From: an uncultured Chloroflexia bacterium
Lineage (GTDB): Bacteria > Chloroflexota > Limnocylindria > Limnocylindrales > CSP1-4
Reading direction: 5' to 3'
NCBI GenBank assembly: GCA_963735865.1
Contig: CAVTML010000002.1
Span: forward strand, 903,668-967,667
DNA length: 64,000 nt
Numbering within the stretch: the stretch's first letter is position 1; each line of letters begins with the position of its first letter. The translations under genes were made by a program, and so were the position numbers. The notes under the pieces were generated by a model. It worked only from the letters and a program-made list of their open reading frames with translations, was not told the DNA's origin and made no database searches. Positions 2,863-17,544 of this stretch are shown in pieces.

Positions 2863-4140
2863 GTGCTCATCGTCCAGAAGTACGGCGGCTCCTCGCTCGC
2901 CACGGCCGACCGCATCCGCCGCGTGGCGGGGCGGATCGCCCGTGAGCGCGCCGACGGCGAACGGCTGGTCGTGGTGGTCAGCGCCATGGGCGACACGACC
3001 GACGACCTCCTCGCCCTGGCCGCCCAGATCACGCCCGACCCGGATCCGCGCGAGCTCGATGTGCTGCTGGCGACCGGCGAGCACATGAGCGGGACGCTGG
3101 TGGCGATGGCGCTCCACGCGCTCGGCATCCCGGCCATCAGCCTCACCGGCCCGCAGGCGGGCATCCGCACCGACACGCGGCACGGGCGGGCGCGCATCGC
3201 CAACGTCGATCCCGCGCGCCTCGTCCGCGAGCTCGACGCAGGCCGCGTGGTGATCGTGGCCGGCTTCCAGGGCGCGACCGGTGAGGGGTTCCTGGAGAGC
3301 GACGTCACCACCCTCGGGCGGGGCGGCTCGGACACCACGGCCGTCGCCCTGGCCGCCCGCCTGGGCGCCGACCGGTGCGAGATCCTGACCGACGTCGAAG
3401 GCATCTTCACGGCCGACCCGCGGGTCGTGCCGGACGCCCGGCTGCTGCCCGTCATCGGCTACGAGGAGATGCTCGAGCTGGCCCAGCAGGGCGCCCAGGT
3501 CATGCAGACCCGCGCCGTCGAGCTGGGCTGGGTCAACGGCGTGGTCATCGCCGTGCGCTCGACCTTCTCCGACCATCCCGGCACGCACATCAAGGAGGAC
3601 CCGCTCGTGGAGCAGCGCAACAAGGTGCGCGGCCTGGCCACCGACCGCCACGTCGCCAAGGTCACGCTGGTCGGGGTGCCCGACCGGCCGGGCGTCGCCC
3701 ACGCCGTCTTCGCCCCGCTCGCCGAGGCCGGCATCAACGTCGACATGATCGTCCAGAACGTCGGCCATGCCGGCACGACCGACCTGTCGTTCACGATCCC
3801 CTCGGTCGACCTCGCGAGCGCCGACCGGCTGCTCGAGGCGATCCGCCGCGAGCTCGGTGCCGCCGAGGTGACCACCGACCGGGCGGTCGCCAAGGTCTCC
3901 ATCGTCGGGGCCGGCATCCAGAACGCCCCCGGCTACGCGGCGCGGATGTTCGGCACGCTGGCCGACGCCGGCATCAATATCGAGATGATCTCGACCAGCG
4001 AGATCCGCATCACCTGCATCATCGCCGAGGCCGACGTGGAGGCCGCCGCCCAGGCCCTCCACCGTGCCTTCGCCCTGGAGCGGCCCGAGACGGTCGGCAT
4101 GGAGCCCCTGGTCGGGGGCGCCGAGGCCGCCGCCGAGTGA
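2863..4140 (+). CDS. ask: aspartate kinase
   Basis: 425 aa. N-terminal KYGGSSL kinase motif and two C-terminal ACT-type repeats (VAKVTLVG / VAKVSIVG). Confidence 0.93.
   Translation: MLIVQKYGGSSLATADRIRRVAGRIARERADGERLVVVVSAMGDTTDDLLALAAQITPDPDPRELDVLLATGEHMSGTLVAMALHALGIPAISLTGPQAGIRTDTRHGRARIANVDPARLVRELDAGRVVIVAGFQGATGEGFLESDVTTLGRGGSDTTAVALAARLGADRCEILTDVEGIFTADPRVVPDARLLPVIGYEEMLELAQQGAQVMQTRAVELGWVNGVVIAVRSTFSDHPGTHIKEDPLVEQRNKVRGLATDRHVAKVTLVGVPDRPGVAHAVFAPLAEAGINVDMIVQNVGHAGTTDLSFTIPSVDLASADRLLEAIRRELGAAEVTTDRAVAKVSIVGAGIQNAPGYAARMFGTLADAGINIEMISTSEIRITCIIAEADVEAAAQALHRAFALERPETVGMEPLVGGAEAAAE
3607..4140 (+). CDS. possible aspartate kinase beta subunit from an in-frame internal GTG
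   Basis: AAGGAGG (3592-3598) lies 8 nt before in-frame GTG 3607, at the start of the ACT region. Mirrors the nested lysC alpha/beta arrangement known in Corynebacterium. Confidence 0.35.
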   Translation: MEQRNKVRGLATDRHVAKVTLVGVPDRPGVAHAVFAPLAEAGINVDMIVQNVGHAGTTDLSFTIPSVDLASADRLLEAIRRELGAAEVTTDRAVAKVSIVGAGIQNAPGYAARMFGTLADAGINIEMISTSEIRITCIIAEADVEAAAQALHRAFALERPETVGMEPLVGGAEAAAE

Positions 4141-4958
4141 GCCGGACGCGCCCGTTCGTCTCGCGCCTGGAGCGCTTCGTGGAGGTCGACTCGACACAGC
4201 GGATCGTGGCCGGCTGGCTGGTCGCCGGGGCCCCGGAGGTCGCCGTCGCCACGGCCGACATCCAGACCGCCGGCCGCGGCCGCACGGGCCGCAGGTGGCA
4301 GGCTCCGTCGGGCACCGCGCTCCTCATGACCGGCGGCTTCCGGCCGCGCGGCCTGCCGCTGGCCCAGGCGTGGCGCATCGCCGCGATCGCCTCCCTGGCC
4401 CTGGTGGAGGCGGCCGAGGCGCAAGGTTTCAAGGACGGCATGATCGGCCTGAAATGGCCCAACGACCTGATCGCCGACGGGCCCAACGGGGAGCCGCTGA
4501 AGCTGGCCGGCGTGCTCGGTGAGGTCGCCGCGGCGGACGATGGGACGGTCGCCACGTGCTTGGTCGGGCTGGGGATCAACGTGGACTGGCCTGCGGTGGC
4601 CTTCCCACGGGAGCTGGCGCCGACGATGACGAGCCTGCGTGAGTTGGCCCATCGGCCAGTCGACCGGGATGCCGTCCTGGAGGGCTTCCTGGACCGGCTC
4701 GAGCCGCGTTACGAGGCGTTGATGGCGGGCCGCTTCGACAGCGCCGGCTGGACGGGCCGCCAGCGCACCACGGGGCGTCTGGTCACCCTACAGGTCGGCG
4801 ACGAGGTCGTGGAAGGGACGGGGGCGGGCGTGGACCCGCTGTCGGGAGCGCTCGCCCTCGAGGTGGGCGGTTCGATCCGCCACTTCGACAGCGCCGAGGT
4901 CCTGCGCTGCCGGATCACGGCGGCCGGCCGGTCGGAGGCCTCGATCAAGGCCGGGTGA
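4137..4958 (+). CDS. birA: biotin-[acetyl-CoA-carboxylase] ligase, class I (no HTH)
   Basis: GTG 4137 overlaps the ask stop (GTGA). GRGRTGRRW biotin-ligase signature; no N-terminal DNA-binding domain. Confidence 0.8.
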   Translation: MSRTRPFVSRLERFVEVDSTQRIVAGWLVAGAPEVAVATADIQTAGRGRTGRRWQAPSGTALLMTGGFRPRGLPLAQAWRIAAIASLALVEAAEAQGFKDGMIGLKWPNDLIADGPNGEPLKLAGVLGEVAAADDGTVATCLVGLGINVDWPAVAFPRELAPTMTSLRELAHRPVDRDAVLEGFLDRLEPRYEALMAGRFDSAGWTGRQRTTGRLVTLQVGDEVVEGTGAGVDPLSGALALEVGGSIRHFDSAEVLRCRITAAGRSEASIKAG

Positions 4959-6164: not shown

Positions 6165-7072
6165 GCGGTGGCTCCCTCGAGGACGGTGCGGAAGATCTCG
6201 CCAAGGCTGGGCTCGACGCGGTGGAACTCGCTGACCGGACCGGTCGCGAGGGCCGCCCGGAGCAGCGCCTGGTCGTCGCCGCCAGGGTCGATCTCGAACA
6301 GCCGGCGCGAGCCGTCCTGGATGACCAGCGTTGCGCCGGCGATGCCCTCGCCCCAACTCGCGGGCGCACTCGGCACCTCGATCAAACGTCGCTCCGGCGC
6401 CCCCGCCCTCAGTTCGGCGACGGTGCCATTTGCCACAAGGCGACCCTTATCGATGATGGCCACGCGATCGCACAGCCGTTCGACGAGTGCGAGCTCATGG
6501 CTTGAGAAGAGCACCGGCCGACCGGCGTCGGCCTGCTCGCGCAACACGCCGCTCATGACGTCGACGGCGACCGGGTCGAGGCCGGCGAACGGCTCGTCGA
6601 GCACGAGCAGGTCGGGCGTGAACACGAGGGCAGCCGCGAGCTGGACCCGCTGTTGGTTGCCGAGGCTGAGGCTCTGCACGTCGTCTTTGGCGCGGTCGGC
6701 GAGCCCGAAACGCTCGAGCCACGACGCGGCCGCGGTCCGTGCAGCGATGGCGGCCATGCCGTGCAGCTCGGCGAGGTAGGCGAGCTGCTCGCCGACCCGC
6801 ATCTTCGGGTACAGGCCGCGCTCCTCCGGCATGTAGCCGATCCGCCGGCGTGCAGCGAACGTGAGCGGCGCCCCGCCGAACCGCACCTCGCCGGCATCGG
6901 CGGTCAGCACGCCGAGTACGATCCGCATGGTGGTCGTCTTGCCGGCGCCATTGCGTCCGACGAACCCGCAGAGCTGTCCGGCGGGCACCGTGAGGGTGAG
7001 GTCATCGACGGCGACGACGGCCCCATAGCGCTTGGAGACGCCCATGATCTCGAGGACGTGATCGGGGGCCAC
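6161..7072 (-). CDS. ABC transporter ATP-binding protein (NatA-like)
   Basis: Walker A GRNGAGKTT, signature LSLGNQQR, Walker B LLVLDEP. GTG start. Confidence 0.9.
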   Translation of the reverse strand: MAPDHVLEIMGVSKRYGAVVAVDDLTLTVPAGQLCGFVGRNGAGKTTTMRIVLGVLTADAGEVRFGGAPLTFAARRRIGYMPEERGLYPKMRVGEQLAYLAELHGMAAIAARTAAASWLERFGLADRAKDDVQSLSLGNQQRVQLAAALVFTPDLLVLDEPFAGLDPVAVDVMSGVLREQADAGRPVLFSSHELALVERLCDRVAIIDKGRLVANGTVAELRAGAPERRLIEVPSAPASWGEGIAGATLVIQDGSRRLFEIDPGGDDQALLRAALATGPVSEFHRVEPSLGEIFRTVLEGATA

Positions 7073-7078
7073 GAGCGG

Positions 7079-7084
7079 AGGCTA
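7079..7084 (-). promoter_or_regulatory. -10-like hexamer TAGCCT, 6 nt before the ABC ATPase GTG
   Basis: Minus strand reads TAGCCT-ccgctc-GTG. Confidence 0.35.
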
Positions 7085-7182
7085 CCGCGTCCGTGCCTCA
7101 GCCGCGGCGCCTAGGGCCGCCCGTCCACTTCATGTGCTCGCGGCCGGCCGCGCACGTTCACGAACGGTGCCCGAGTAACGGC

Positions 7183-7188
7183 TAGACT
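7183..7188 (+). promoter_or_regulatory. -10-like hexamer TAGACT, 6 nt before the ECF sigma GTG
   Basis: TAGACT-gcgccg-GTG. Confidence 0.4.
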
Positions 7189-7194
7189 GCGCCG

Positions 7195-7788
7195 GTGTTC
7201 AGGAAAGCAGCGGAACGAGGCCGCCAGCGCCTCGTCCCGTTCGACGCCGATCGCTCGGCCGTCGAGGCGGCCAGGCGCGATCCGCGCCGTTTCGAGCCGC
7301 TGTACCGCAAGTACGTGGGGCAGGTATACAGCTTTGCGGCTTATGAACTCCGTGACCACCATGCGGCGGAAGACGTGACCGAACAGGTCTTCATGCAGGC
7401 GCTCCGGGGGCTGTCCTCGTTCGAGGAGCGCGGCGACGGGTCGGTCAGCACCTTCCGCGTGTGGCTCTTCCAGATCGCCCGCAACGCGCTCGCCAACGAG
7501 CACCGCCGCCGGGCCCGCCACCCCCAGGCGCCCCTCGACGCGGCCCTCGACGTGTCGGCGCCAGGCCAGGATCCGGCCGTCCTGGCCGTCTCGTCCGACG
7601 AGACGCGACGTGCCTGGCGGGCCATCAGCCGGCTGCCGACCGAACGCCGCCGCGCCCTGACGCTGCGCTTCGTGGAAGAGATGTCGACCCCCGAGATCGC
7701 CGGCGTGATGGGCCGTTCCGAGGGCGCCGTACGCGTGCTCATCCATCGGGCCCTGCGCGCCGTGGCGACCGAGCTGGAGCGTGACTGA
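7195..7788 (+). CDS. ECF-type RNA polymerase sigma factor
   Basis: 197 aa. Sigma-70 region 2 (FEPLYRKYVGQVYSFA...DVTEQVF) and region 4 (LPTERRRALTLRFVEEMSTPEIAGVMGRSEGAVRVL). Confidence 0.85.
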   Translation: MFRKAAERGRQRLVPFDADRSAVEAARRDPRRFEPLYRKYVGQVYSFAAYELRDHHAAEDVTEQVFMQALRGLSSFEERGDGSVSTFRVWLFQIARNALANEHRRRARHPQAPLDAALDVSAPGQDPAVLAVSSDETRRAWRAISRLPTERRRALTLRFVEEMSTPEIAGVMGRSEGAVRVLIHRALRAVATELERD

Positions 7789-8194
7789 CGAGGTGGTCCG
7801 GCTGGACGCCTACGTGGAGGGCGTGCTGGCCGGACGACCGGCCGGGCCGCGGCCGCTGATGGACCAGGCGGACATCGACCCCGCCGCGGGCCGGGCGGCC
7901 GATATCCTGGCCCGTTCGCTGGTGCGCTTCCATCCCTCGTTCCGCTTCGAGGATGCCCTCGCGGCACGGCTGCGCGCGCTCGGCGAGGCGATGCACGACG
8001 AACGCCCGGAACCGCTCATCGGGGGCCCCGTGCTCGTCTTCCCGGGCGGCCCCGAGGGGTCGCTTGAGCCTGTCGACGAGCCGGCGGGGCCGTTCGGCCG
8101 CGGCCTGCTGGTCGGTGGAGCGATCGCCTCGGGCCTGTCCCTGGCCGGGGCGGCCTACCTGGCCTGGCGCCGCGGTCACCGGGTGGCCTCGTGA
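7781..8194 (+). CDS. putative anti-sigma factor, single C-terminal TM
   Basis: GTG overlaps the sigma gene end by 8 nt. 137 aa with one hydrophobic helix (LLVGGAIASGLSLAGAAYLAW). Function inferred from position only. Confidence 0.5.
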   Translation: MTDEVVRLDAYVEGVLAGRPAGPRPLMDQADIDPAAGRAADILARSLVRFHPSFRFEDALAARLRALGEAMHDERPEPLIGGPVLVFPGGPEGSLEPVDEPAGPFGRGLLVGGAIASGLSLAGAAYLAWRRGHRVAS

Positions 8195-8207
8195 GGAGCG
8201 TCGTGCG

Positions 8208-9131
8208 ATGCCGCTGAAGCTGCCCTTCCGCACGCGCGGCCAGGAGTACCCGCCCGACCTCTGGACCCGCTGCCCGAGCTGCGAAGAGATGATCTACAAC
8301 AAGCAGCTCGACAAGAACCTGCGCGTGTGCCCCACCTGCGGGCACCACTTCCGGCTGAGCGCGACGGCGCGGATCGCGCTGATGGTCGACCCCGGCTCGT
8401 TCGTCGAGCGCGACGCCGGCCTGGCTTCGGTGGACGCCCTTGGGTTCGTCGATCAGAAGCCGTACCCGGAGCGCCTGGCCGCCGCCACCGCGGCGACCGG
8501 CCTCGGCGACGCCGCCGTGTGGGGCATGGCGACCCTGGCCCAGCATCGCATCGCCCTCGCCGTCATGGACTTCGCCTTCATGGGTGGCTCGATGGGCTCG
8601 GTCGTGGGCGAGAAGGTGACCCGGGCCGCGGAGGCGGCACTGGCCGATCGGGTGCCGCTCGTCATCGTCTCGGCTTCCGGCGGCGCGCGGATGCAGGAAG
8701 GGACGCTGGCCCTGATGCAGCTGGCCAAGACGGTCGGCGCCATCGGCCGCCTGGATGCCGCGGGCGTGACCTTCATCAGCGTCATGACCGACCCCACGAC
8801 CGGCGGCGTGTTCGCCTCCTTCGCTGCGCTCGGCGACGTCAACGTGGCCGAGCCCAACGCCCTCATCGGCTTCGCCGGCTCCCGCGTCTCGGCGGGCACC
8901 ATCGCCGAGTCGCTGCCGCCCGGCTTCCAGCGCTCCGAATTCCTCTTCAACCACGGGTTCATCGACCTCATCGTGCCCCGCCATCAGCTCCGCGACGAGC
9001 TGGGGCGCCTGCTCCAGTACCTCCGACCGGCGCCCGTTCCTGCCGACCGGGCGGCCCCGGCGGCCTCCGGCAACGGCTCCTTCCCGCGCTCGCTCCTCGA
9101 GTCCCTGGCGGGGGATCCCAGCCGTGGCTGA
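8208..9131 (+). CDS. accD: acetyl-CoA carboxylase carboxyltransferase beta subunit
   Basis: N-terminal Zn ribbon CPSCEEMIY...CPTCGHHFR, then a carboxyltransferase domain. ATG 8208. Confidence 0.9.
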   Translation: MPLKLPFRTRGQEYPPDLWTRCPSCEEMIYNKQLDKNLRVCPTCGHHFRLSATARIALMVDPGSFVERDAGLASVDALGFVDQKPYPERLAAATAATGLGDAAVWGMATLAQHRIALAVMDFAFMGGSMGSVVGEKVTRAAEAALADRVPLVIVSASGGARMQEGTLALMQLAKTVGAIGRLDAAGVTFISVMTDPTTGGVFASFAALGDVNVAEPNALIGFAGSRVSAGTIAESLPPGFQRSEFLFNHGFIDLIVPRHQLRDELGRLLQYLRPAPVPADRAAPAASGNGSFPRSLLESLAGDPSRG

Positions 9132-10128
9132 GCGGGTCGTCGACAGCCCCCCGGCGCTGGCCGAACAGGAGCGCAACGCGGTCTGGGAGCGCGTCCGCCT
9201 GGCCCGCAACATCCGCCGGCCGCACTCCCTGGAGCTCCTCCAGGCGATGGCCACCGACGTCATCGAGCTGCACGGCGACCGCTACTTCGGCGACGACGGC
9301 GCGATCGTGGCCGGCTTCGCCCGCCTGGACGGGCGGCCGATCATGTTCGTGGGCCAGCAGAAGGGCAGCGACACGGAGGAGAACATCCGCCGCAACTTCG
9401 GCAGCGCCCACCCCGAGGGCTTCCGCAAGGCGATGCGCATCTTCCGCCTGGCGGAGAAGCTGCACCTGCCGGTCGTCACCCTGGTGGACACGGCGGGGGC
9501 GCATCCGGGCGCGGCATCCGAGGAACGCGGCATCGCCGAGGCCATCGCCCGCTCGATCATGACGATGCTGGGTCTGCGCACGCCGATCGTGGTGGCCATC
9601 ATCGGCGAGGGCGGCTCGGGCGGCGCCCTGGCCGTGGCCGCCGGCGACGTGGTCCTGGCCCTGGAGAACGCCGTCTACGCGGTGATCAGTCCCGAGGGCT
9701 GTGCCAGCATCCTGTGGCGCAGCAGCGAGGCCGCGCCGCAGGCCGCCGCCGCGATGCGCATGACCGCGCCGGAGCAGGCGCGGCTGGGCGTTGTCGATGG
9801 CGTCGTGCCCGAGCCGCCGGGCGGCGCCCAGGAGGACGCGGGCCGCACCGCCACCCAGCTGCGCGCGGCCATCATCACCGAGCTCGACCGCCTCGCGGCG
9901 CTGTCGACGCCGGCGCTGCTCGAGGCCCGCTACCAGCGCTACCGGCGGATGGGCGCCTTCACCGTGCACGAGGCCGCGGCCGAGGGCCGGGTGGAGCGCC
10001 CCGGCCTGACCGACCGCCTGCGCAACATCCTGGACCTGGGACGGCATACCCTTGCGGGGATCGATCCGTCCGATGGCCCGCCGGATCCGGCCGCCGCGGA
10101 CGAGCCACCGCTGCGGGAGGAGCTGTAG
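9124..10128 (+). CDS. accA: acetyl-CoA carboxylase carboxyltransferase alpha subunit
   Basis: 334 aa. LHGDRYFGDDGAIVAGFARLDGRPIMFVGQQKG and TLVDTAGAHPG motifs. Overlaps accD by 8 nt. Confidence 0.9.
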   Translation: MAERVVDSPPALAEQERNAVWERVRLARNIRRPHSLELLQAMATDVIELHGDRYFGDDGAIVAGFARLDGRPIMFVGQQKGSDTEENIRRNFGSAHPEGFRKAMRIFRLAEKLHLPVVTLVDTAGAHPGAASEERGIAEAIARSIMTMLGLRTPIVVAIIGEGGSGGALAVAAGDVVLALENAVYAVISPEGCASILWRSSEAAPQAAAAMRMTAPEQARLGVVDGVVPEPPGGAQEDAGRTATQLRAAIITELDRLAALSTPALLEARYQRYRRMGAFTVHEAAAEGRVERPGLTDRLRNILDLGRHTLAGIDPSDGPPDPAAADEPPLREEL

Positions 10129-10713
10129 ATGGCCGACCGACCCGCCCGCCGCGCTGCGGGGCCCGCCGCTCCGCCTGGCGGGGACGCGGCCGCCATGGGC
10201 CGCCTCGCCGACGAGCTCCTGCCGGCCCTCATCGCACGTCTCGAGGCGAGCACGCTCGGCGAGCTGGAGATCCGCCGCAACGGCTGGCGCGTCCGCCTGC
10301 GCCGGGCCACGCTGGACGCCGCCCCGATCGACGGCACGGCACGGCGCGGTGGGGGGCGCTCCCGCCCCACGGCCGACCAGCCGGCCGCGACCGGCCGGTC
10401 CGCGCCGCTCGCGGCGGTCGGCCCCGGCCTGCCCGCCAAGAGCGCCGATCGGCGACCCGCGGCGCTCTCGCCGGCCGTAGGCTACTTCAGCCCCCTCGGC
10501 AGCCTCACCGCCGGCGTCGCCGTCCGTTCCGGCGACGTCCTCGGCCACGTCGACGTGCTGGGGGTGCGCCAGGACGTGGTGGCCCCGGCCGACGGCGTCG
10601 TGGGGCGGTATCTGGCCGAAGCGGGGGAGGCCGTGGAGTACGGCCAGGAGCTCGTGCGCCTCGAGGCCGGCCGCGACGGATCGGTGGCCGCCGTGCCCGC
10701 CGAGGCCGGCTGA
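10129..10713 (+). CDS. biotin carboxyl carrier protein-like protein lacking the biotinyl-lysine
   Basis: BCCP layout: N-terminal LIARLEASTLGELEI and a C-terminal lipoyl/biotinyl-type hairpin. Where accB has EAMKL it reads VDVLGV, with no Lys in the domain. Confidence 0.75.
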   Translation: MADRPARRAAGPAAPPGGDAAAMGRLADELLPALIARLEASTLGELEIRRNGWRVRLRRATLDAAPIDGTARRGGGRSRPTADQPAATGRSAPLAAVGPGLPAKSADRRPAALSPAVGYFSPLGSLTAGVAVRSGDVLGHVDVLGVRQDVVAPADGVVGRYLAEAGEAVEYGQELVRLEAGRDGSVAAVPAEAG

Positions 10714-12095
10714 TGTTCGAGCGGATCCTCATCGCCAACCGCGGCGAGATCGCCCTGCGCATCCTGCGCACCTGCCGGCGCATGGGCATCGGGGCGGTCG
10801 TCGCCTACAGCGAGGCCGACCGCGATACGCGGGCCGTGCAGCTGGCCGACGAGGCCATCTGCGTCGGACCCGCCGAGGCCAAGCGCAGCTACCTCTCGGC
10901 GCCGGCCATCCTCTCGGCCGCCATCGTCACCGGCTGCGACGCCATCCACCCGGGCTACGGCTTCCTGTCGGAAGACGACACGTTCGCCGAGATGACGCGG
11001 GCGCACGGCCTGACCTTCATCGGGCCGCCCGCCGAGGTGCTGGAGCGGTTCGCCTCCAAGGCCGGTACGCGCCACCTGCTGGCGAGCCACGGGCTGCCCA
11101 CCGTGCCCGGCTCGGCCGAGATGCTGCGCGACGACGCGGAAGCCCTGGTGGAGGCCGAGCGGATCGGTTACCCGGTGCTCATCAAGCCGTCCGCCGGAGG
11201 CGGGGGACGGGGCATGCGCATGGTCCGTTCGCCGCGCGAGCTCGAGCAGGCCCTCACCGTCTGCCGCTCGGAGGCCCGGGCCGCCTTCGGCGACGACTCC
11301 CTGTACCTGGAGAAGTGGCTGGAGGAGACGCGCCACGTGGAGGTCCAGGTGATCGTGGACCGCTACGGCCACGGCGTCCACGTGGGCGAACGCGACTGCT
11401 CGGTCCAGCGGCGCCACCAGAAGCTCGTCGAGGAGAGCCCCTCGCCGGCCCTCACCCCCGAGGCCAGCGCGGAACTGTGCCGCACCGCCGTCGAGGCCGT
11501 CGTGGCCGCCGGCTACGAGAACGTGGGCACGCTCGAGTTCCTCGTCGACCAGTCGGGACAGGCCTACTTTATCGAGATCAACTGCCGCATCCAGGTCGAG
11601 CACCCGGTCACGGAGATGCGCTCCGGCCTCGACTTCGTGGCCGAGCAGATCCGCATCGCCGCCGGCGAGCCCCTCGGCTACAGCCAGGCCGACGTCGTCC
11701 TGCGGGGCCATGCCGTGGAGTTCCGCATCAACGCCGAGGACGTGGCCCACGACTTCCGGCCGCAGGCCGGCGAGGTGCAGCGCTACCTTGCGCCGGGCGG
11801 CCCCGGCGTGCGCATGGACAGCCACCTCTTCCCGGCCTACGAGGTGCCCCCGTTCTACGACTCGCTGCTGGGCAAGCTGGTCGTGTGGGGCCCCGATCGA
11901 TCGTCCGCGCTGGCCCGCGCGCGGGGCGTCCTCGACGAGGTGGTGCTGGAGGGCCTCATCACCAACCTGGACTTCCACCGCGCCCTGCTGCGCAACGAGA
12001 CGTTCATCGAGGGCGCCTTCACCACCAACCTGCTCGACCGGATCGGCAGCGCGGCCTTCGTCTCCAGCGTCGCGCGCCCACAGGCGGTCGGATGA
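10713..12095 (+). CDS. accC: biotin carboxylase
   Basis: ATG 10713 overlaps the preceding stop (TGATG). MFERILIANRGEIALRILR and an ATP-grasp core. The 793-aa ORF in the track is read-through. Confidence 0.93.
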   Translation: MFERILIANRGEIALRILRTCRRMGIGAVVAYSEADRDTRAVQLADEAICVGPAEAKRSYLSAPAILSAAIVTGCDAIHPGYGFLSEDDTFAEMTRAHGLTFIGPPAEVLERFASKAGTRHLLASHGLPTVPGSAEMLRDDAEALVEAERIGYPVLIKPSAGGGGRGMRMVRSPRELEQALTVCRSEARAAFGDDSLYLEKWLEETRHVEVQVIVDRYGHGVHVGERDCSVQRRHQKLVEESPSPALTPEASAELCRTAVEAVVAAGYENVGTLEFLVDQSGQAYFIEINCRIQVEHPVTEMRSGLDFVAEQIRIAAGEPLGYSQADVVLRGHAVEFRINAEDVAHDFRPQAGEVQRYLAPGGPGVRMDSHLFPAYEVPPFYDSLLGKLVVWGPDRSSALARARGVLDEVVLEGLITNLDFHRALLRNETFIEGAFTTNLLDRIGSAAFVSSVARPQAVG

Positions 12096-12547
12096 GCGAG
12101 GCGGTCCTCACTTCGGCCCAGATCCAGGCCCTCATCCCGCACCGCTGGCCCTTCCTGCTGGTCGACCGCATCGTCGAGTACGACCCGGCGGCGCAGCGCA
12201 TCGTGGGCCAGAAGGGCGTGACCGCCTCGGAATGGTTCTTCCAGGGCCATTTCCCGGGGCTACCCGTTATGCCCGGCGTGCTGCAGGTGGAGGCGCTGGC
12301 CCAGACGATGGCCGTCTACGTGGCCCAGCAGGAGGGCTTCGGCGACCGCATCGGGCTGTTCGCCGGCATCGAGGAGTGCCGCTTCAAGCGCCTCGTCCAG
12401 CCCGGCGACACGCTCCGCCTGGAGGTCGTCATGGAGCGGCTCGGCCGGCGCTTCGGTCGCGGGCGGGGCGTGGCCAGCGTCGACGGCGAGGTCGCCTGCG
12501 AGGCGCTGCTGAGCTTCATCATCCCCGGCGAGGGGGTCCTGAAATGA
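12092..12547 (+). CDS. fabZ: 3-hydroxyacyl-ACP dehydratase
   Basis: ATGA overlap with accC. HFPGLPVMPGVLQVEALAQ hot-dog motif. Confidence 0.9.
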   Translation: MSEAVLTSAQIQALIPHRWPFLLVDRIVEYDPAAQRIVGQKGVTASEWFFQGHFPGLPVMPGVLQVEALAQTMAVYVAQQEGFGDRIGLFAGIEECRFKRLVQPGDTLRLEVVMERLGRRFGRGRGVASVDGEVACEALLSFIIPGEGVLK

Positions 12548-13290
12548 CCTTCCGCCTGGCCGTCTTCGGCGACATCCACGGCAACGTCGCGGCGCTCGAC
12601 GCAGCGCTGGCGGCCGTGGAGCGGGCCCGCCCCGACGCGGTGGCGGTGACCGGCGACCTGGTCATGAACGGGCCGCGGCCGGCCGAGGTGCTGGCGCGCA
12701 TCCGCACTCTCGAGCAGGCCGGCGCCTGCGTCGTCCAGGGCAACACGGACATCGCCGTGGCCGACCTGGACATGAGTGCCGCGTTCCCCTGGCTGGAGGA
12801 GGTGCCCGCCGCGCAGCGCGCGGCCGCCGAGTGGGCCCACGACATCCTGGCGCCAGCCGACCTGGACCTGCTGCGCCGGCTGCCCTCCGAGCGGCGCCTG
12901 CGGGTCGGCGACGACCTGGTCCTGATCTGCCACGGCTCACCGGGCAGCCAGACCGACGGCCTGGCGGCGGGCCTTGATGCGGCGGTGACCGTGCAGCGCA
13001 TCACGCGCACCGACGCACGGGTCATCGTGTGCGGTCACACGCACGTGGCCGAGACGCGCGAGTTCGGCCGGCGGCTCATCTGCAACCCGGGCTCGTGCGG
13101 CTACAGCTTCGACGGCGACGCCGACGCGGCCTGGGCCCTCCTGACCTTCGAGCCCGACGGGGCCATCACGGCCGACCTGCGGCGGGCCTCGTACGATCCG
13201 CTGCCGATGGCCGAGGAGGTCGCCGCTCGCGGCCTGCCCGGCGATGTCTACCGGGCGGCCACGATCCGCACCGGGCGCTTCGTCCGATGA
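12544..13290 (+). CDS. metallophosphoesterase (YfcE/MJ0936-like)
   Basis: ATGA overlap with fabZ. Motifs GDIHGN, TGDLV, GNTD, GHTH. Confidence 0.8.
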   Translation: MTFRLAVFGDIHGNVAALDAALAAVERARPDAVAVTGDLVMNGPRPAEVLARIRTLEQAGACVVQGNTDIAVADLDMSAAFPWLEEVPAAQRAAAEWAHDILAPADLDLLRRLPSERRLRVGDDLVLICHGSPGSQTDGLAAGLDAAVTVQRITRTDARVIVCGHTHVAETREFGRRLICNPGSCGYSFDGDADAAWALLTFEPDGAITADLRRASYDPLPMAEEVAARGLPGDVYRAATIRTGRFVR

Positions 13291-14558
13291 GCGGCCCCAC
13301 CCCGCTCGGGCGGCGCCGCGTGGTGGTCACCGGCATGGGCACGGTGACGCCGCTGGCCAACGACGTGGCCGGCACCTGGGCGGCCCTCGTGGCCGGACGG
13401 TCGGGCGTGCGGCCCATCACGTCGTTCGACCCGTCCCGCCTGACGAGCCGCATCGCCGGTGAGGTGCAGGACCTGGACGCCTCCGGCGTGCTGGACCGCA
13501 AGGAGCTGCGGCGCACCGACCGCTTCACCCAGTTCGCCCTGGTGGCGGCGCGGGAGGCGATGGCCCAGGCCTGCCTGCCGGCCCGCCTCGAGGGCGCCAT
13601 GGCCGAGGAGACCGGGACGCTGGTGGCGTCGGGCATGGGCGGCACGGGCACGCTGGTGGAGCAGATCGCCATCTCGGCCACCCGCGGTCCCGATCGCATC
13701 AGCCCGTTCTTCATCCCCATGGCCATCAGCAACATGGCCGCCGGTCAGGTCTCCATCGTCCTCGGGCCGCAGGGGCCGTCGTTCGCGCCGGTCAGTGCCT
13801 GCGCCAGCGGCGGGCACGCCATCGGGGAGGGGGCCGAGATCATCCTGCGCGGCGACGCCGAGATGATGATCGCGGGCGGCTCCGAGGCGCCCATCTTCGA
13901 GGCTTTCGTGGGCGCCTTCGCGGCGATGCGGGCGCTCTCCACGCGCAACGATGACCCGGCCGGGGCCTCGCGTCCGTTCGACCAGGGCCGCGACGGGTTC
14001 GTGGCGGCCGAGGGCGCCGCCATGCTCGTCCTGGAGGAGGCCGGCCACGCCCAGCGGCGCGACGTGCCCATCCTGGCCGAGGTGGTCGGGTACGGCGCCA
14101 CGTCCGACGCGGTCCACGTGACGCTGCCCGCGCCGGGCGGCGCGGGCGCCCTGCGGGCGGCGCGGCGGGCCCTGGCCAAGGCCGGCCTGCCACCGACCGC
14201 CATCGACACCGTCAGTGCCCACGCCACCAGCACGCCGGAAGGCGACCCGGCCGAGCTGGCCGCGTTCCGATCGCTCTTCGGCGAGCACGGGCCCCGCGTC
14301 AGCATCACCGCCACGAAGGGCGCCATCGGCCACACCCTCGGCGCGGCGGGCGCCATCGGCGCCGTCGTGACGATCATGTCGATGCGCGACGGGCGGGTGC
14401 CGCCGACCCTCAACCTGGTGGCGCCCGATCCGGCCGTCGGCGATCTCGACTGCACGCCCCTGGTGGCCCGCCAGCGGGAGCTCAACGTGGGGCTCGTCAA
14501 CGCCTTCGGCTTCGGCGGCCAGAACAGCTGCGTCGTCCTCAAGCGGTGGGAGGCCTAG
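13287..14558 (+). CDS. fabF: 3-oxoacyl-ACP synthase II
   Basis: ATGA overlap. Active-site ACASGGHAIG plus HATSTPEGD and GHTLGAAG. Confidence 0.92.
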   Translation: MSGPTPLGRRRVVVTGMGTVTPLANDVAGTWAALVAGRSGVRPITSFDPSRLTSRIAGEVQDLDASGVLDRKELRRTDRFTQFALVAAREAMAQACLPARLEGAMAEETGTLVASGMGGTGTLVEQIAISATRGPDRISPFFIPMAISNMAAGQVSIVLGPQGPSFAPVSACASGGHAIGEGAEIILRGDAEMMIAGGSEAPIFEAFVGAFAAMRALSTRNDDPAGASRPFDQGRDGFVAAEGAAMLVLEEAGHAQRRDVPILAEVVGYGATSDAVHVTLPAPGGAGALRAARRALAKAGLPPTAIDTVSAHATSTPEGDPAELAAFRSLFGEHGPRVSITATKGAIGHTLGAAGAIGAVVTIMSMRDGRVPPTLNLVAPDPAVGDLDCTPLVARQRELNVGLVNAFGFGGQNSCVVLKRWEA

Positions 14559-14559
14559 G

Positions 14560-15036
14560 GTGGCGCAGCGAGCCCGCTCCTCCGACGGCGAGGCGGCTGA
14601 ACTGGTGGCCCTCATCGATCGCCTGGAGGCGATCCTGGCGGCGTCGAACCTGTCCGAGCTGGAGGTCGAGGTCGGCGAGACCGCCCTCGTCCTGCGCAAG
14701 CCGGTGGCTCTGCCCGCCGAGGCGGCAGCCGCGGCTCATATGGCGCGCGAGGACGCCCCTGACCATCCGCCCGAGCCGGCCGCGCCGGCCTCGCCCTACC
14801 ACCAGGTGCTGGCGCCGCTGACCGGCCTGCTCTACCTCTCGCCGAGCCCCGACGCCGCGCCCTACGTGCAGGTTGGGCGCGAGGTCAATCAGGGCCAGGT
14901 GATCGGCCTGATCGAGGCCATGAAGCTGTTCAACGAGATCAAGTCCGACGTGCGCGGCCGGGTGGTGCGCATCCTGGCCGAGCATGGCGCGCTGATCAAG
15001 GCGCGCCAGCCCATCCTGGACGTCGATCCCTCATGA
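14560..15036 (+). CDS. accB: biotin carboxyl carrier protein (canonical)
   Basis: 158 aa. C-terminal GQVIGLIEAMKLFNEI with the biotinylation Lys. Confidence 0.88.
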   Translation: MAQRARSSDGEAAELVALIDRLEAILAASNLSELEVEVGETALVLRKPVALPAEAAAAAHMAREDAPDHPPEPAAPASPYHQVLAPLTGLLYLSPSPDAAPYVQVGREVNQGQVIGLIEAMKLFNEIKSDVRGRVVRILAEHGALIKARQPILDVDPS

Positions 15037-16250
15037 CAACCGGGAGGCAACCGCCCATGGGTCCCGCCAGCGTCCGCCTGACCGGCTGGGGCCGGTACGT
15101 CCCGGAGCGCGTCCTGACCAACCAGGACCTGGGCCGGCTCGTGGAGACGAACGACGAGTGGATCACGTCGCGGACGGGCATCCGCGAGCGCCGCGTGGCG
15201 GGTCCGCACGAGACGACCGCCTCGCTGGCGGCCGTCGCCGGCGCCCGCGCCCTGGCCGTGGCCGGCCTGGATCCGGCCGACCTCGACCTCATCCTGGTCG
15301 GCACCTGCACGCCGGACTACGGCATGCCGGCCACCGCGGTCTTCGTCAAGGAGGCGCTCGGGGCGACCCACGCCGCGGCCATGGACCTCTCGGCCGTCTG
15401 CTCGGGCTTCGTCTATGCCTTCTCCGCCGGCCACGCCTACCTCGCCAGCGGGCTGTACCGCACCGTGCTGGTCATCGGGGCGGAGGTCCTCACGCGCATC
15501 CTGGACTACCGCGACCGCAACACCTGCGTGCTGTTCGGCGATGGAGCTGGGGCCGTCGTGCTGGCCGCGTCCGACGAGCCCGGCGGCGGCCTGCTGGGCT
15601 TCGAGCTGACGGCCGACCCGGAGGGCGCCTACAACATCTGGACGCCGGCCGGCGGCACGGCCCTGCCGACCGATCCGGTGAACCTCGAGGGGCGCATGCG
15701 CTTCGTGCGCATGAAGGGCCAGGAGACGTACCGCTACGCCACCCGGACGATGGCGCGGACGGTGGAGAAGGCGCTCGCGCGGGCCGGCCTCACCGCCGAC
15801 GACATCGCCCTCTTCGTGCCCCACCAGGCCAACGTGCGCATCATCGAGGCCGTGGGCAGGCAGCTGGGCATCGGGCTCGACCGGGTCTACGTCAACGTCG
15901 ACCGCTACGGCAACACGAGCGCCGCATCGGTGCCCATCGCCCTGGCCGAGGCGGTCGACGCCGGGCGCGTCCGGCCGGGCGACAAGGTCGTGTTCGTGGC
16001 CTTCGGCTCGGGCTACACCAGTGGCGCCTGCGTGGTCGAGTGGACGGCCGATCCGGCGAACGCCGCGCGGGCTGCGGCGGTGCCGCCGTTCGTGACGATC
16101 CAGCCGCCCGCCGACGTCCCCCTCGGCGACCCCACGCCGGCCGAGCTGCAGCCCATCTTCGCCGAGAAGGAGGCCGCCGCGGCGCGCCAGGCCGAGGAGG
16201 GCCCGGCCACGCCAGCAGAGCGGCCGACGCCCGCAGGGGCACGGGCATGA
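15033..16250 (+). CDS. fabH: 3-oxoacyl-ACP synthase III with a ~70-aa C-terminal extension
   Basis: ATGA overlap. AVCSGFVYA, HQANVRI and GNTSAAS motifs. Pro/Ala/Glu-rich tail follows the normal FabH end (CVVEW). Confidence 0.88.
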   Translation: MTTGRQPPMGPASVRLTGWGRYVPERVLTNQDLGRLVETNDEWITSRTGIRERRVAGPHETTASLAAVAGARALAVAGLDPADLDLILVGTCTPDYGMPATAVFVKEALGATHAAAMDLSAVCSGFVYAFSAGHAYLASGLYRTVLVIGAEVLTRILDYRDRNTCVLFGDGAGAVVLAASDEPGGGLLGFELTADPEGAYNIWTPAGGTALPTDPVNLEGRMRFVRMKGQETYRYATRTMARTVEKALARAGLTADDIALFVPHQANVRIIEAVGRQLGIGLDRVYVNVDRYGNTSAASVPIALAEAVDAGRVRPGDKVVFVAFGSGYTSGACVVEWTADPANAARAAAVPPFVTIQPPADVPLGDPTPAELQPIFAEKEAAAARQAEEGPATPAERPTPAGARA

Positions 16251-16996
16251 TCGACCTCAGCGGGCAGCACGCCCTGGTCACCGGCGGGGCGCGCGGCATC
16301 GGGCGCGCCATCGTGCTGCGGCTGGCGCGCCAGGGGGCCGACGTGGCGTTCAGCTATCGCGCCAACGCGGAGGCCGCGGCGGAGGCCGTGGCGGAGGTCG
16401 AGGCGCTCGGGCGGCGCGGGCTGGCCATCCAGGGCGATGCCAGCGATCCGGCCACCGCGGAGGCGCTGGTCAAGGCCACCTTGGCGGCCTTCGGGACGAT
16501 CGAGATCCTGGTCAATAATGCCGGCACGACCCGCGACGACCTCATCATGCGCATGAGCCCCGAGGCGTGGCGCGTGGTCCTGGAGACCAACCTCTTCGGC
16601 GCGTTCTATGCCATCAAGGCCGTCACCCGCCCCATGCTCAAGGCGCGCCGCGGCCGGATCATCAACATCACCAGCGTCTCGGGCCAGGCCGGCCAGACCG
16701 GGCAGGCGAACTATTCCTCGGCCAAGGCGGGCCTCATCGGCCTTACCAAGGCGACCGCCCGCGAGCTGGCCAGCCGCGGCATCACCGCCAACGCCGTGGC
16801 GCCGGGCTTCGTGGACACCGACCTGACCCACGACCTGCCCGAGGCGTTGAAGGAGCAGATCCGCGCCGCGACGCCCCTGGGGCGGTTCGGCACGGCCGAG
16901 GAGGTCGCCGATGCGGTGGCCTTCCTGGCGTCCGACGAAGCCGCCTTCATCACCGGTCAGGTCCTGGCCGTCGACGGTGGCCTGGTGATGATGTGA
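16247..16996 (+). CDS. fabG: 3-oxoacyl-ACP reductase
   Basis: ATGA overlap. SDR motifs TGGARGIGRAI, NNAG, YSSAKAG. Confidence 0.92.
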   Translation: MIDLSGQHALVTGGARGIGRAIVLRLARQGADVAFSYRANAEAAAEAVAEVEALGRRGLAIQGDASDPATAEALVKATLAAFGTIEILVNNAGTTRDDLIMRMSPEAWRVVLETNLFGAFYAIKAVTRPMLKARRGRIINITSVSGQAGQTGQANYSSAKAGLIGLTKATARELASRGITANAVAPGFVDTDLTHDLPEALKEQIRAATPLGRFGTAEEVADAVAFLASDEAAFITGQVLAVDGGLVMM

Positions 16997-17544
16997 CGGC
17001 CGCCGCGGCCGGCTGGACCGGCACCCCCATCGCCGACGTCCTGCGGCGGCGCATGGTGGCCCACGCCGACAATCGGGGTGCCTTCAGCGAACTGTGGCGG
17101 GCCTCCTGGACCGACCCCCTTGGTGGCCGGCCGTTCGTCCAGGCCAACCTCTCGCGCTCGCTGCCGCGCGTCCTGCGGGGCCTCCACGTGCACCGCCACC
17201 AGGCCGACCTGTGGAGCGTCCTGGCCGGCGTGGGCACGATCGCCCTGGTCGACCTGCGGCCGGCGCTGGCCGGCGCCGGCGGGGCGCCGCCGACGGCCGT
17301 GCTGCCGGTGGAGGCCGGTGACCAGGTCTACATCCCGGCCCTAGTGGGCCACGGCTTCTACGCCCACAGCGAGCTGCAGCTGTGCTACCTCGTGACCAAC
17401 GAGTACGACGGCACCGACGAGCTGGGCTTCGCCTGGGACGACCCGGCAGCCGCCGTGGCGTGGCCCGAGCGTGAGCCCATCCTCTCCGACCGCGACCGGG
17501 CCAATCCGCCGCTGGGCGACCTCGTGGCCCGCCTCCGCGGCTGA
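16993..17544 (+). CDS. rfbC: dTDP-4-dehydrorhamnose 3,5-epimerase
   Basis: GTG 16993 overlaps the fabG stop (GTGA). DNRGAFSE, LRGLHVH and VGHGF cupin motifs. Confidence 0.85.
   Translation: MTAAAAGWTGTPIADVLRRRMVAHADNRGAFSELWRASWTDPLGGRPFVQANLSRSLPRVLRGLHVHRHQADLWSVLAGVGTIALVDLRPALAGAGGAPPTAVLPVEAGDQVYIPALVGHGFYAHSELQLCYLVTNEYDGTDELGFAWDDPAAAVAWPEREPILSDRDRANPPLGDLVARLRG

Follow-up and report, generated by a model that had tools for sequence, protein, structure and literature searches.

Gene X at the accA-accC junction

The DNA analyzed here is a stretch of 64,000 nucleotides of contig CAVTML010000002.1 from an uncultured Chloroflexia bacterium, referred to as the window. Between accA and accC, two genes of acetyl-CoA carboxylase (ACC), it encodes a paralogue of the biotin carboxyl carrier protein (BCCP) without the biotinylation lysine. 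The open reading frame (ORF) is named gene X, and its coordinates, 10129 to 10713 on the forward strand, count the stop codon. X starts with ATG and encodes 194 amino acids. The TAG stop codon of accA (10126-10128) directly abuts the start codon of X, and the TGA of X and the ATG of accC overlap by 1 nucleotide at 10713, so the gene occupies the slot between accA and accC in which a preliminary description had placed it. Table 1 lists the features of the locus.

No Shine-Dalgarno sequence precedes Met23 (10195), an alternative start. Residues 1 to 22 are poorly conserved, with a ratio of nonsynonymous to synonymous substitution rates (dN/dS) of 0.49; this ratio was computed throughout against L081, a relative's locus whose X is 83% identical. 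Here and below, L-numbers (L030, L081, etc.) denote relatives' loci compared with the window. The exact start of X is slightly uncertain, though the ATG at 10129 has the support of a strong Shine-Dalgarno sequence. X matches the NCBIfam family TIGR00531 (BCCP) over profile positions 8 to 155 of 156 with an E value of 3.5e-10 and 40.5 bits, far below the equivalog cutoff of 115.2 bits. The match to the Pfam family Biotin_lipoyl (PF00364) reaches 20.6 bits, slightly under the gathering score of 22.1.

Loss of the biotinyl-lysine and shortening of the thumb

Three alignments place a glycine of X where BCCPs carry the biotinylated lysine. BLASTP of X against the accB of the window sets GHVDVLGVRQDVVAPADG against GLIEAMKLFNEIKSDVRG, and in a MAFFT alignment with the BCCP of Escherichia coli, the K122 column contains Gly in X. 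A profile built from 64 members of the X family matches full-length E. coli BCCP (4hr7_B, residues 28 to 176) with an E value of 4.7e-15. Here, the family pattern GDvlGhvdvLGV lies opposite GDTLCIVEAMKM of E. coli, so that L-G-V faces M-K-M and Gly145, encoded by the GGG codon at 10561-10563, faces the biotinyl-lysine. The replacement of the Met-Lys of AMKL by Leu-Gly, read by eye in the preliminary description, is borne out by all three alignments, and the profile alignment proposed there for locating the hairpin leaves no lysine at its tip. The folded C-terminal domain is also free of lysine, as had been stated; X has a single lysine, K104, and this residue belongs to the linker.

A second alteration concerns the thumb. 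In 196 family members, 27 residues separate the xVGxF motif from the hairpin, compared with 33 residues in E. coli BCCP and in all 33 other true BCCPs with measurable motifs. The thumb of X is short by a fixed 6 residues, and the same 6 residues appear as extra in E. coli in the profile alignment.

By its sequence, X falls outside the BCCP equivalog family (TIGR00531), because the lysine, the score cutoff, and the thumb all fail. Likewise, X is predicted to be incapable of carrying CO2, because the biotinyl-lysine is replaced by Gly, the thumb is not full, and the domain has no lysine. Many X-family proteins carry the public annotation "acetyl-CoA carboxylase biotin carboxyl carrier protein." This label is misleading, and metabolic reconstructions that count X proteins as functional BCCPs would be wrong.

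Domain architecture and predicted fold

The structure of X was predicted with AlphaFold2 as a single chain on the basis of the family alignment. The model shows a three-part organization. The N-terminal α/β/β module is comprised of a helix (residues 18 to 40) and two strands (residues 45 to 50 and 53 to 58), with P32, L34, G44, E45, E47, and R56 as invariant residues. In the family profile, this module aligns with the first ∼30 residues of E. coli BCCP, a predicted α/β/β motif that has been proposed to oligomerize and thereby to tether the BCCPs in the active ACC tube (PMC11160672). A flexible linker follows, and the C-terminal part is a biotinyl/lipoyl-type barrel-sandwich domain predicted with high confidence.

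In a Foldseek search of the PDB with the X model, biotinyl domains rank first. E. coli BCCP (1bdo) superimposes with a template modeling (TM) score of 0.80 (on target), a root mean square deviation of 1.8 Å, and 31% identity. Further matches are the Pyrococcus BCCP 2evb (TM score of 0.88), the E. coli complex of biotin carboxylase (BC) and BCCP 4hr7, and the Arabidopsis BCCP1 9a87. X shows the N-terminal BC-interaction/oligomerization module and Pro/Ala linker of a BCCP together with the flattened β-barrel of the biotinyl-domain fold. The profile matches, the AlphaFold2 model, and Foldseek all agree with the earlier portrayal of a BCCP-shaped protein with an N-terminal helix, a Pro/Ala/Arg linker, and a C-terminal hairpin domain.

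Family size, conservation, and selection

X belongs to a large, old, and conserved family and is not a relic or one-off. At least 1,402 matches to X are found in a database clustered at 90% identity, the best 120 of which all come from metagenome-assembled genomes (MAGs) of the Chloroflexota/Candidatus Limnocylindria type (MAG taxonomy following the depositors' own labels). When 1.84 billion representatives were searched exhaustively with a profile, 152 clusters (50% identity) were obtained at an E value of ≤1e-30, below which there is a clear drop to ordinary BCCPs. Gly occupies the lysine column in all 226 members that match the hairpin pattern as well as in 119 of 119 sequences in the MAFFT set. 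The variants among the 226 are VLGV (186 members), VLGI (15 members), MLGV (11 members), and others; members outside the pattern show D-C-L-G-V or are fragments. Within the hairpin tip, L144 and G145 never vary, and D142, V143, and V146 show conservation of 90% or more; the domain is wholly devoid of lysine in 204 of 245 members.

The dN/dS of the whole gene (0.205) is close to that of accB (0.200). The N-terminal module has a value of 0.073 and the C-terminal domain one of 0.051, compared with 0.52 for the linker. Purifying selection is strong on both folded modules, the hairpin without lysine included.

Synteny and descent of X and accB

In a single scan of species-representative genomes, X was present at 59 loci, all of the Limnocylindria type. 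The gene order accD-accA-X-accC...fabF-accB(EAMKL)-fabH-fabG recurs across these loci. accA lies immediately upstream of X in 55 of the 59 loci; at the other 4, no match to accA extends to the start of X, in most cases because the contig is cut at that point. A genuine accB reading LIEAMKLFNEIKSD is located downstream of X in each of the 45 loci that extend more than 5.5 kb in this direction. The survey of relatives suggested in the preliminary description finds the same Gly in L081 and in 58 other species-level loci.

In a deep subclade (L030 to L058; X identity of about 40%), X and accC are separated by an inserted fabD. This gene, encoding malonyl-CoA:ACP transacylase with the motif GHSVGEY, lies at ∼8470-9430 in L030 and at the equivalent position in L031 to L058. 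With fabD inserted before accC, X therefore stays with accA rather than with accC. The metallophosphoesterase gene found between fabZ and fabF in the window (12544-13290, with 4-nucleotide overlaps) is kept in the main subclade and is absent from the subclade with the fabD insertion.

A neighbor-joining tree on about 100 columns, read here for its broad topology only, has low resolution, with bootstrap values of 49% for the X clade and 68% for the accB clade. The X and accB trees show the same two major subclades, which is consistent with vertical coinheritance of both genes since the ancestor of the class. With only about 29% identity between the X and the accB of one genome, the split between them is old. 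X keeps the canonical C-terminal motif G-E-A-V-E-Y-G-Q of the BCCPs of other phyla. In the functional accB of this lineage, L-[VI]-K-A-[KR]-Q replaces the near-universal VEYGQ (e.g., LVKAKQ). This retention of GEAVEYGQ in X and its change in the functional accB suggest that the gene first present in the accB slot was the ancestor of X.

Other lysine-less BCCP-like proteins

A second lysine-less family of at least 55 clusters occurs in other Chloroflexota, with proteins of about 149 amino acids and the hairpin G-[YF]-V-D-V-L-G-V (e.g., L066 7953-8411 and L083 8001-8450). The genes follow alaS-ruvX-mltG-pepP-efp and precede secF/secD; no acc genes were found within 8 kb of them, and their contigs reach 3.6 Mb. 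These efp-linked proteins share with X the Gly at the lysine column, the N-terminal module, and the VEYGQ end. In contrast to X, they are shorter, have the BCCP-length thumb spacing of 33 residues, and show about 28% identity to X. The change from Lys to Gly seems to be older than the Limnocylindria, with the loss of thumb residues as a later step. The position in the operon is not essential to the role of the hairpin, given that this sister family sits far from acc genes.

Isolated lysine-less BCCP-like genes are also present elsewhere. An Armatimonadota MAG shows ALGI upstream of accC-nusB, an unclassified MAG shows EAMHL upstream of accC, and Dictyobacter shows QSLNV after pepP-efp. A further Chloroflexota MAG (L059) has EVLRM in a gene around 8000-8264; besides L059, the isolated genes are located at 7803-8210 in L074, 7734-8237 in L080, and 4287-4811 in L063. 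The carrier lysine may have been lost repeatedly in the accB slot.

The acc-fab operon, the true accB, and the biotin ligase

Gene X is part of a gene series reaching from accD to fabG (8208-16996). Most junctions overlap, by 8 nucleotides for accD/accA, by 1 nucleotide for X/accC, and mostly by an inferred 4 nucleotides for the others; accA and X abut, and fabF and accB are 1 base apart. A scan of 7000-17500 for promoters and terminators found nothing, a result that is uninformative for a high-GC Chloroflexota genome. The overlapping junctions and the lack of a terminator-like site in between suggest one long, translationally coupled acc-fab operon.

The true accB noted nearby in the preliminary description stands as such. 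In a six-frame scan, its motif is the sole [E/D/S]-x-M-K of the 64-kb window. This accB is located between fabF and fabH and not beside accC. The BirA-type ligase reported at a distance of 5 kb is likewise found, as a class I enzyme ∼5.2 kb upstream of X, and L081 has a PF03099 gene encoding 266 amino acids at the equivalent position.

The ORF at 2863-4140 (425-amino-acid product as listed) seems to overlap the ligase start at 4137 by 4 nucleotides. Its counterpart in L081 carries the aspartokinase domains AA_kinase and ACT and shows the same pairing with the ligase. Directly upstream of the accD region lies a gene for a sigma factor of the ECF type (7195-7788, forward strand). This gene is overlapped by an ORF for 137 amino acids (7781-8194) that adjoins accD, has no Pfam match, and possibly encodes an anti-sigma factor. 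The same arrangement upstream of accD is seen in L081.

Table 1. Gene X, its parts, and neighboring genes in the window
Feature	Coordinates	Strand	Basis
Class I biotin protein ligase, no DNA-binding domain	4137..4958	+	Pfam BPL_LplA_LipB (PF03099), E 8.7e-12, and BPL_C
accD, carboxyltransferase beta with Zn ribbon	8208..9131	+	Pfam Zn_ribbon_ACC and Carboxyl_trans
accA, carboxyltransferase alpha	9124..10128	+	Pfam ACCA, E 2.8e-110
Shine-Dalgarno sequence GGGAGGAG	10115..10122	+	Read from the sequence; ends 6 nucleotides ahead of the X ATG
X, BCCP paralogue without biotinylation lysine	10129..10713	+	ORF and translation
X, N-terminal α/β/β module, residues 18-58	10180..10302	+	AlphaFold2, pLDDT about 86-88
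X, Pro/Ala/Arg/Gly-rich flexible linker, residues 59-110, holds K104	10303..10458	+	pLDDT 51-67
X, C-terminal biotinyl/lipoyl-type barrel-sandwich domain, residues 111-180, lysine-free	10459..10668	+	pLDDT 96-98
X, hairpin tip D142-V143-L144-G145-V146, in place of E-A-M-K-M	10552..10566	+	BLASTP, MAFFT, and profile alignments
accC, biotin carboxylase	10713..12095	+	Pfam Biotin_carb_N, CPSase_L_D2, Biotin_carb_C
fabZ	about 12092-12547	+	
Metallophosphoesterase	about 12544-13290	+	Metallophos in L081 orthologue
fabF	about 13287-14558	+	
Genuine accB, 158 amino acids, EAMKL, full-length thumb, N-terminal module	14560..15036	+	TIGR00531, 97.6 bits; Pfam Biotin_lipoyl, 50 bits
fabH	15033-16250	+	
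fabG	about 16247-16996	+	

Proposed role of X and alternative explanations

Heteromeric ACC catalyzes the committed step of fatty acid synthesis and is a target of antibiotics and herbicides. X is most likely a noncatalytic, cotranslated subunit of this enzyme, predicted to join the complex through the BCCP N-terminal module and to dock without biotin. As proposed for the plant BADC proteins, this subunit would have a constitutive organizing or "glue" role in the assembly of ACC, a reading given a probability of roughly one-half. X would be a former BCCP that has kept the elements for joining the complex and lost those for carrying biotin. Its N-terminal module would co-oligomerize with that of AccB, and the biotin-free domain would dock at the BCCP site of AccC and/or the carboxyltransferase, leading to a complex with a fixed mixture of carrier and dummy BCCPs. 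X could stabilize the subcomplex of AccC and AccB, and the enzyme would perhaps need fewer biotinylated chains. The tight coupling of X translation to that of accA and accC is more in keeping with a constitutive subunit than with a switchable inhibitor, and the glue role is favored over an on/off inhibitor because X is made in step with the catalytic subunits.

Four points weigh against the glue role. The invariance of the hairpin tip fits an active-site plug, and thereby an inhibitor, equally well. The efp-linked family lies outside acc operons, so another partner is possible. The X clade has weak neighbor-joining support, with the bootstrap value given above. For the plant proteins, the choice between glue and inhibitor is itself disputed (PMC11926652; bioRxiv 10.1101/2024.11.04.621944).

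The invariant D-V-L-G-V, which implies a tip that has remained a binding surface, can also be read as the mark of a competitive negative regulator. X would displace biotinylated AccB from AccC or the carboxyltransferase, or plug the biotin site with its hairpin, and the ratio of X to AccB would set the flux through ACC. The protein retains the docking modules of BCCP and has no lysine for biotin, and the plant BADCs were first characterized as inhibitors (PMC11926652; bioRxiv 10.1101/2024.11.04.621944). However, X and accB lie in one tightly coupled operon with no evident way to vary the ratio of their products, and a permanently coproduced inhibitor of an essential enzyme is hard to rationalize without posttranslational control. 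Such a regulator, the main rival of the glue role, is considered unlikely.

The strict synteny with accA at 55 of 59 loci, surviving even the insertion of fabD, argues against a role unrelated to ACC catalysis. X would then merely have been left in the old accB slot, acting in autoregulation of the operon through its N-terminal module or on another barrel-sandwich partner. The sister family with the same hairpin and no acc genes nearby fits this possibility, and the N terminus of E. coli AccB has been discussed as a regulator of expression (PMC11160672). No DNA- or RNA-binding domain was detected in X, however, among its NCBIfam and Pfam hidden Markov model matches, and a function outside ACC appears quite improbable.

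X might also act on biotin metabolism, either as a nonsubstrate decoy for the class I ligase or by sparing biotin through the replacement of structural BCCPs in a small-genome oligotroph. The hairpin keeps the acidic residue and the hydrophobic flanks of the BirA recognition motif, the ligase gene lies upstream in both the window and L081, and the contig has a size of about 2.0 Mb. A decoy, however, has nothing to regulate where the ligase has no repressor domain, and the sparing idea overlaps with the favored glue role; an effect on biotin metabolism is very improbable. A decaying pseudogene, an assembly error, or a spurious ORF, suggested by the many long spurious ORFs that the high-GC DNA of the window contains and by the Pfam and NCBIfam scores under the cutoffs, is ruled out with a negligible residual chance by the recurrence of the gene and the same Gly in hundreds of independent assemblies (L081 and the 58 other loci already exclude the assembly error considered in the preliminary description), by the dN/dS of 0.05 to 0.07 in the folded modules, and by the confident AlphaFold2 fold, the Shine-Dalgarno sequence, and the coupled stop and start codons.

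A broader proposal, tentative and held at somewhat less than even odds, is that bacteria independently evolved dummy carriers of the BADC type. A DVLGV family across the Chloroflexota, with the operon-encoded X in Limnocylindria, the efp-linked form elsewhere, and sporadic analogues in Armatimonadota and others, would then supply obligate noncatalytic partners of biotin carboxylase, whose lysine-free hairpin docks in the biotin site to organize or gate the enzyme.

Dummy carriers have so far been discussed only for plant plastids, and a freshwater/soil lineage of Chloroflexota holds a well-conserved copy of BCCP devoid of the attachment lysine for biotin. If the dummy-carrier reading is true, these bacteria would have a heteromeric ACC made of five components, which could serve as a simple recombinant system for finding out how BADC-like subunits operate. 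A bacterial version with all presumed partners in a single operon would provide a minimal system, expressible in E. coli, for studying the function of dummy carriers. A bacterial counterpart would also show that the dummy-carrier solution evolved more than once.

Comparison with known systems

X shares the three-part organization and the fold of canonical AccB (TIGR00531; E. coli 1bdo/4hr7), and their C-terminal domains are ∼31% identical. X differs in the Gly in place of the biotinyl-lysine, the shortened thumb, the lysine-free domain, and a score of 40.5 bits versus the required 115.2 bits.

The epsilon subunits AccE/PccE of actinobacteria are small, noncatalytic proteins that tether or activate acyl-CoA carboxylase complexes (PMC13012033). 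They are cited as "glue" in connection with the plant enzyme (PMC11926652). The resemblance of X to AccE/PccE, as judged from descriptions, is functional only. These epsilon subunits are not known to be BCCP homologues. The ACC-binding mycobacterial proteins MSMEG_0435-0436 were considered as a further analogue and rejected by description: in the abstract on them, they are described as sequestering the biotin of BCCP domains and are not presented as BCCP-like. The literature searches turned up no report of a bacterial BCCP paralogue without the lysine.

The closest parallel is found in plants. Plant BADCs are BCCP homologues without the AMKL motif that are thought to bind BC and BCCP (PMC11926652). 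They have been described as inhibitors or as "glue" for the BC-BCCP subcomplex (PMC11926652; bioRxiv 10.1101/2024.11.04.621944), the latter role being suggested by reconstitution in vitro (PMC11926652). A paper from 2025 calls BADCs "unique to the plant htACCase" (PMC11926652). Like a plant BADC, X is a BCCP homologue with a folded biotinyl-type domain, a disordered linker, and no AMKL lysine, and it coexists with a genuine BCCP, namely, the EAMKL accB in the window and in all 45 long loci. At the level of sequence, X is nonbiotinylatable, as are BADCs. Unlike the plant proteins, X is bacterial (Chloroflexota), lies inside an acc/fab operon, and has its translation coupled to that of accA and accC. 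It also differs from BADCs as described in published work by an invariant DVLGV hairpin of its own and by the 6-residue thumb deletion. The neighbor-joining tree groups X with BCCP-like sequences of Chloroflexota; because of this grouping, an independent origin of X and plant BADC by convergence is suggested. The comparison with BADC, a nonbiotinylatable look-alike beside a real BCCP, made in the preliminary description is apt as an analogy, and by this analogy X looks like a bacterial counterpart of plant BADC.

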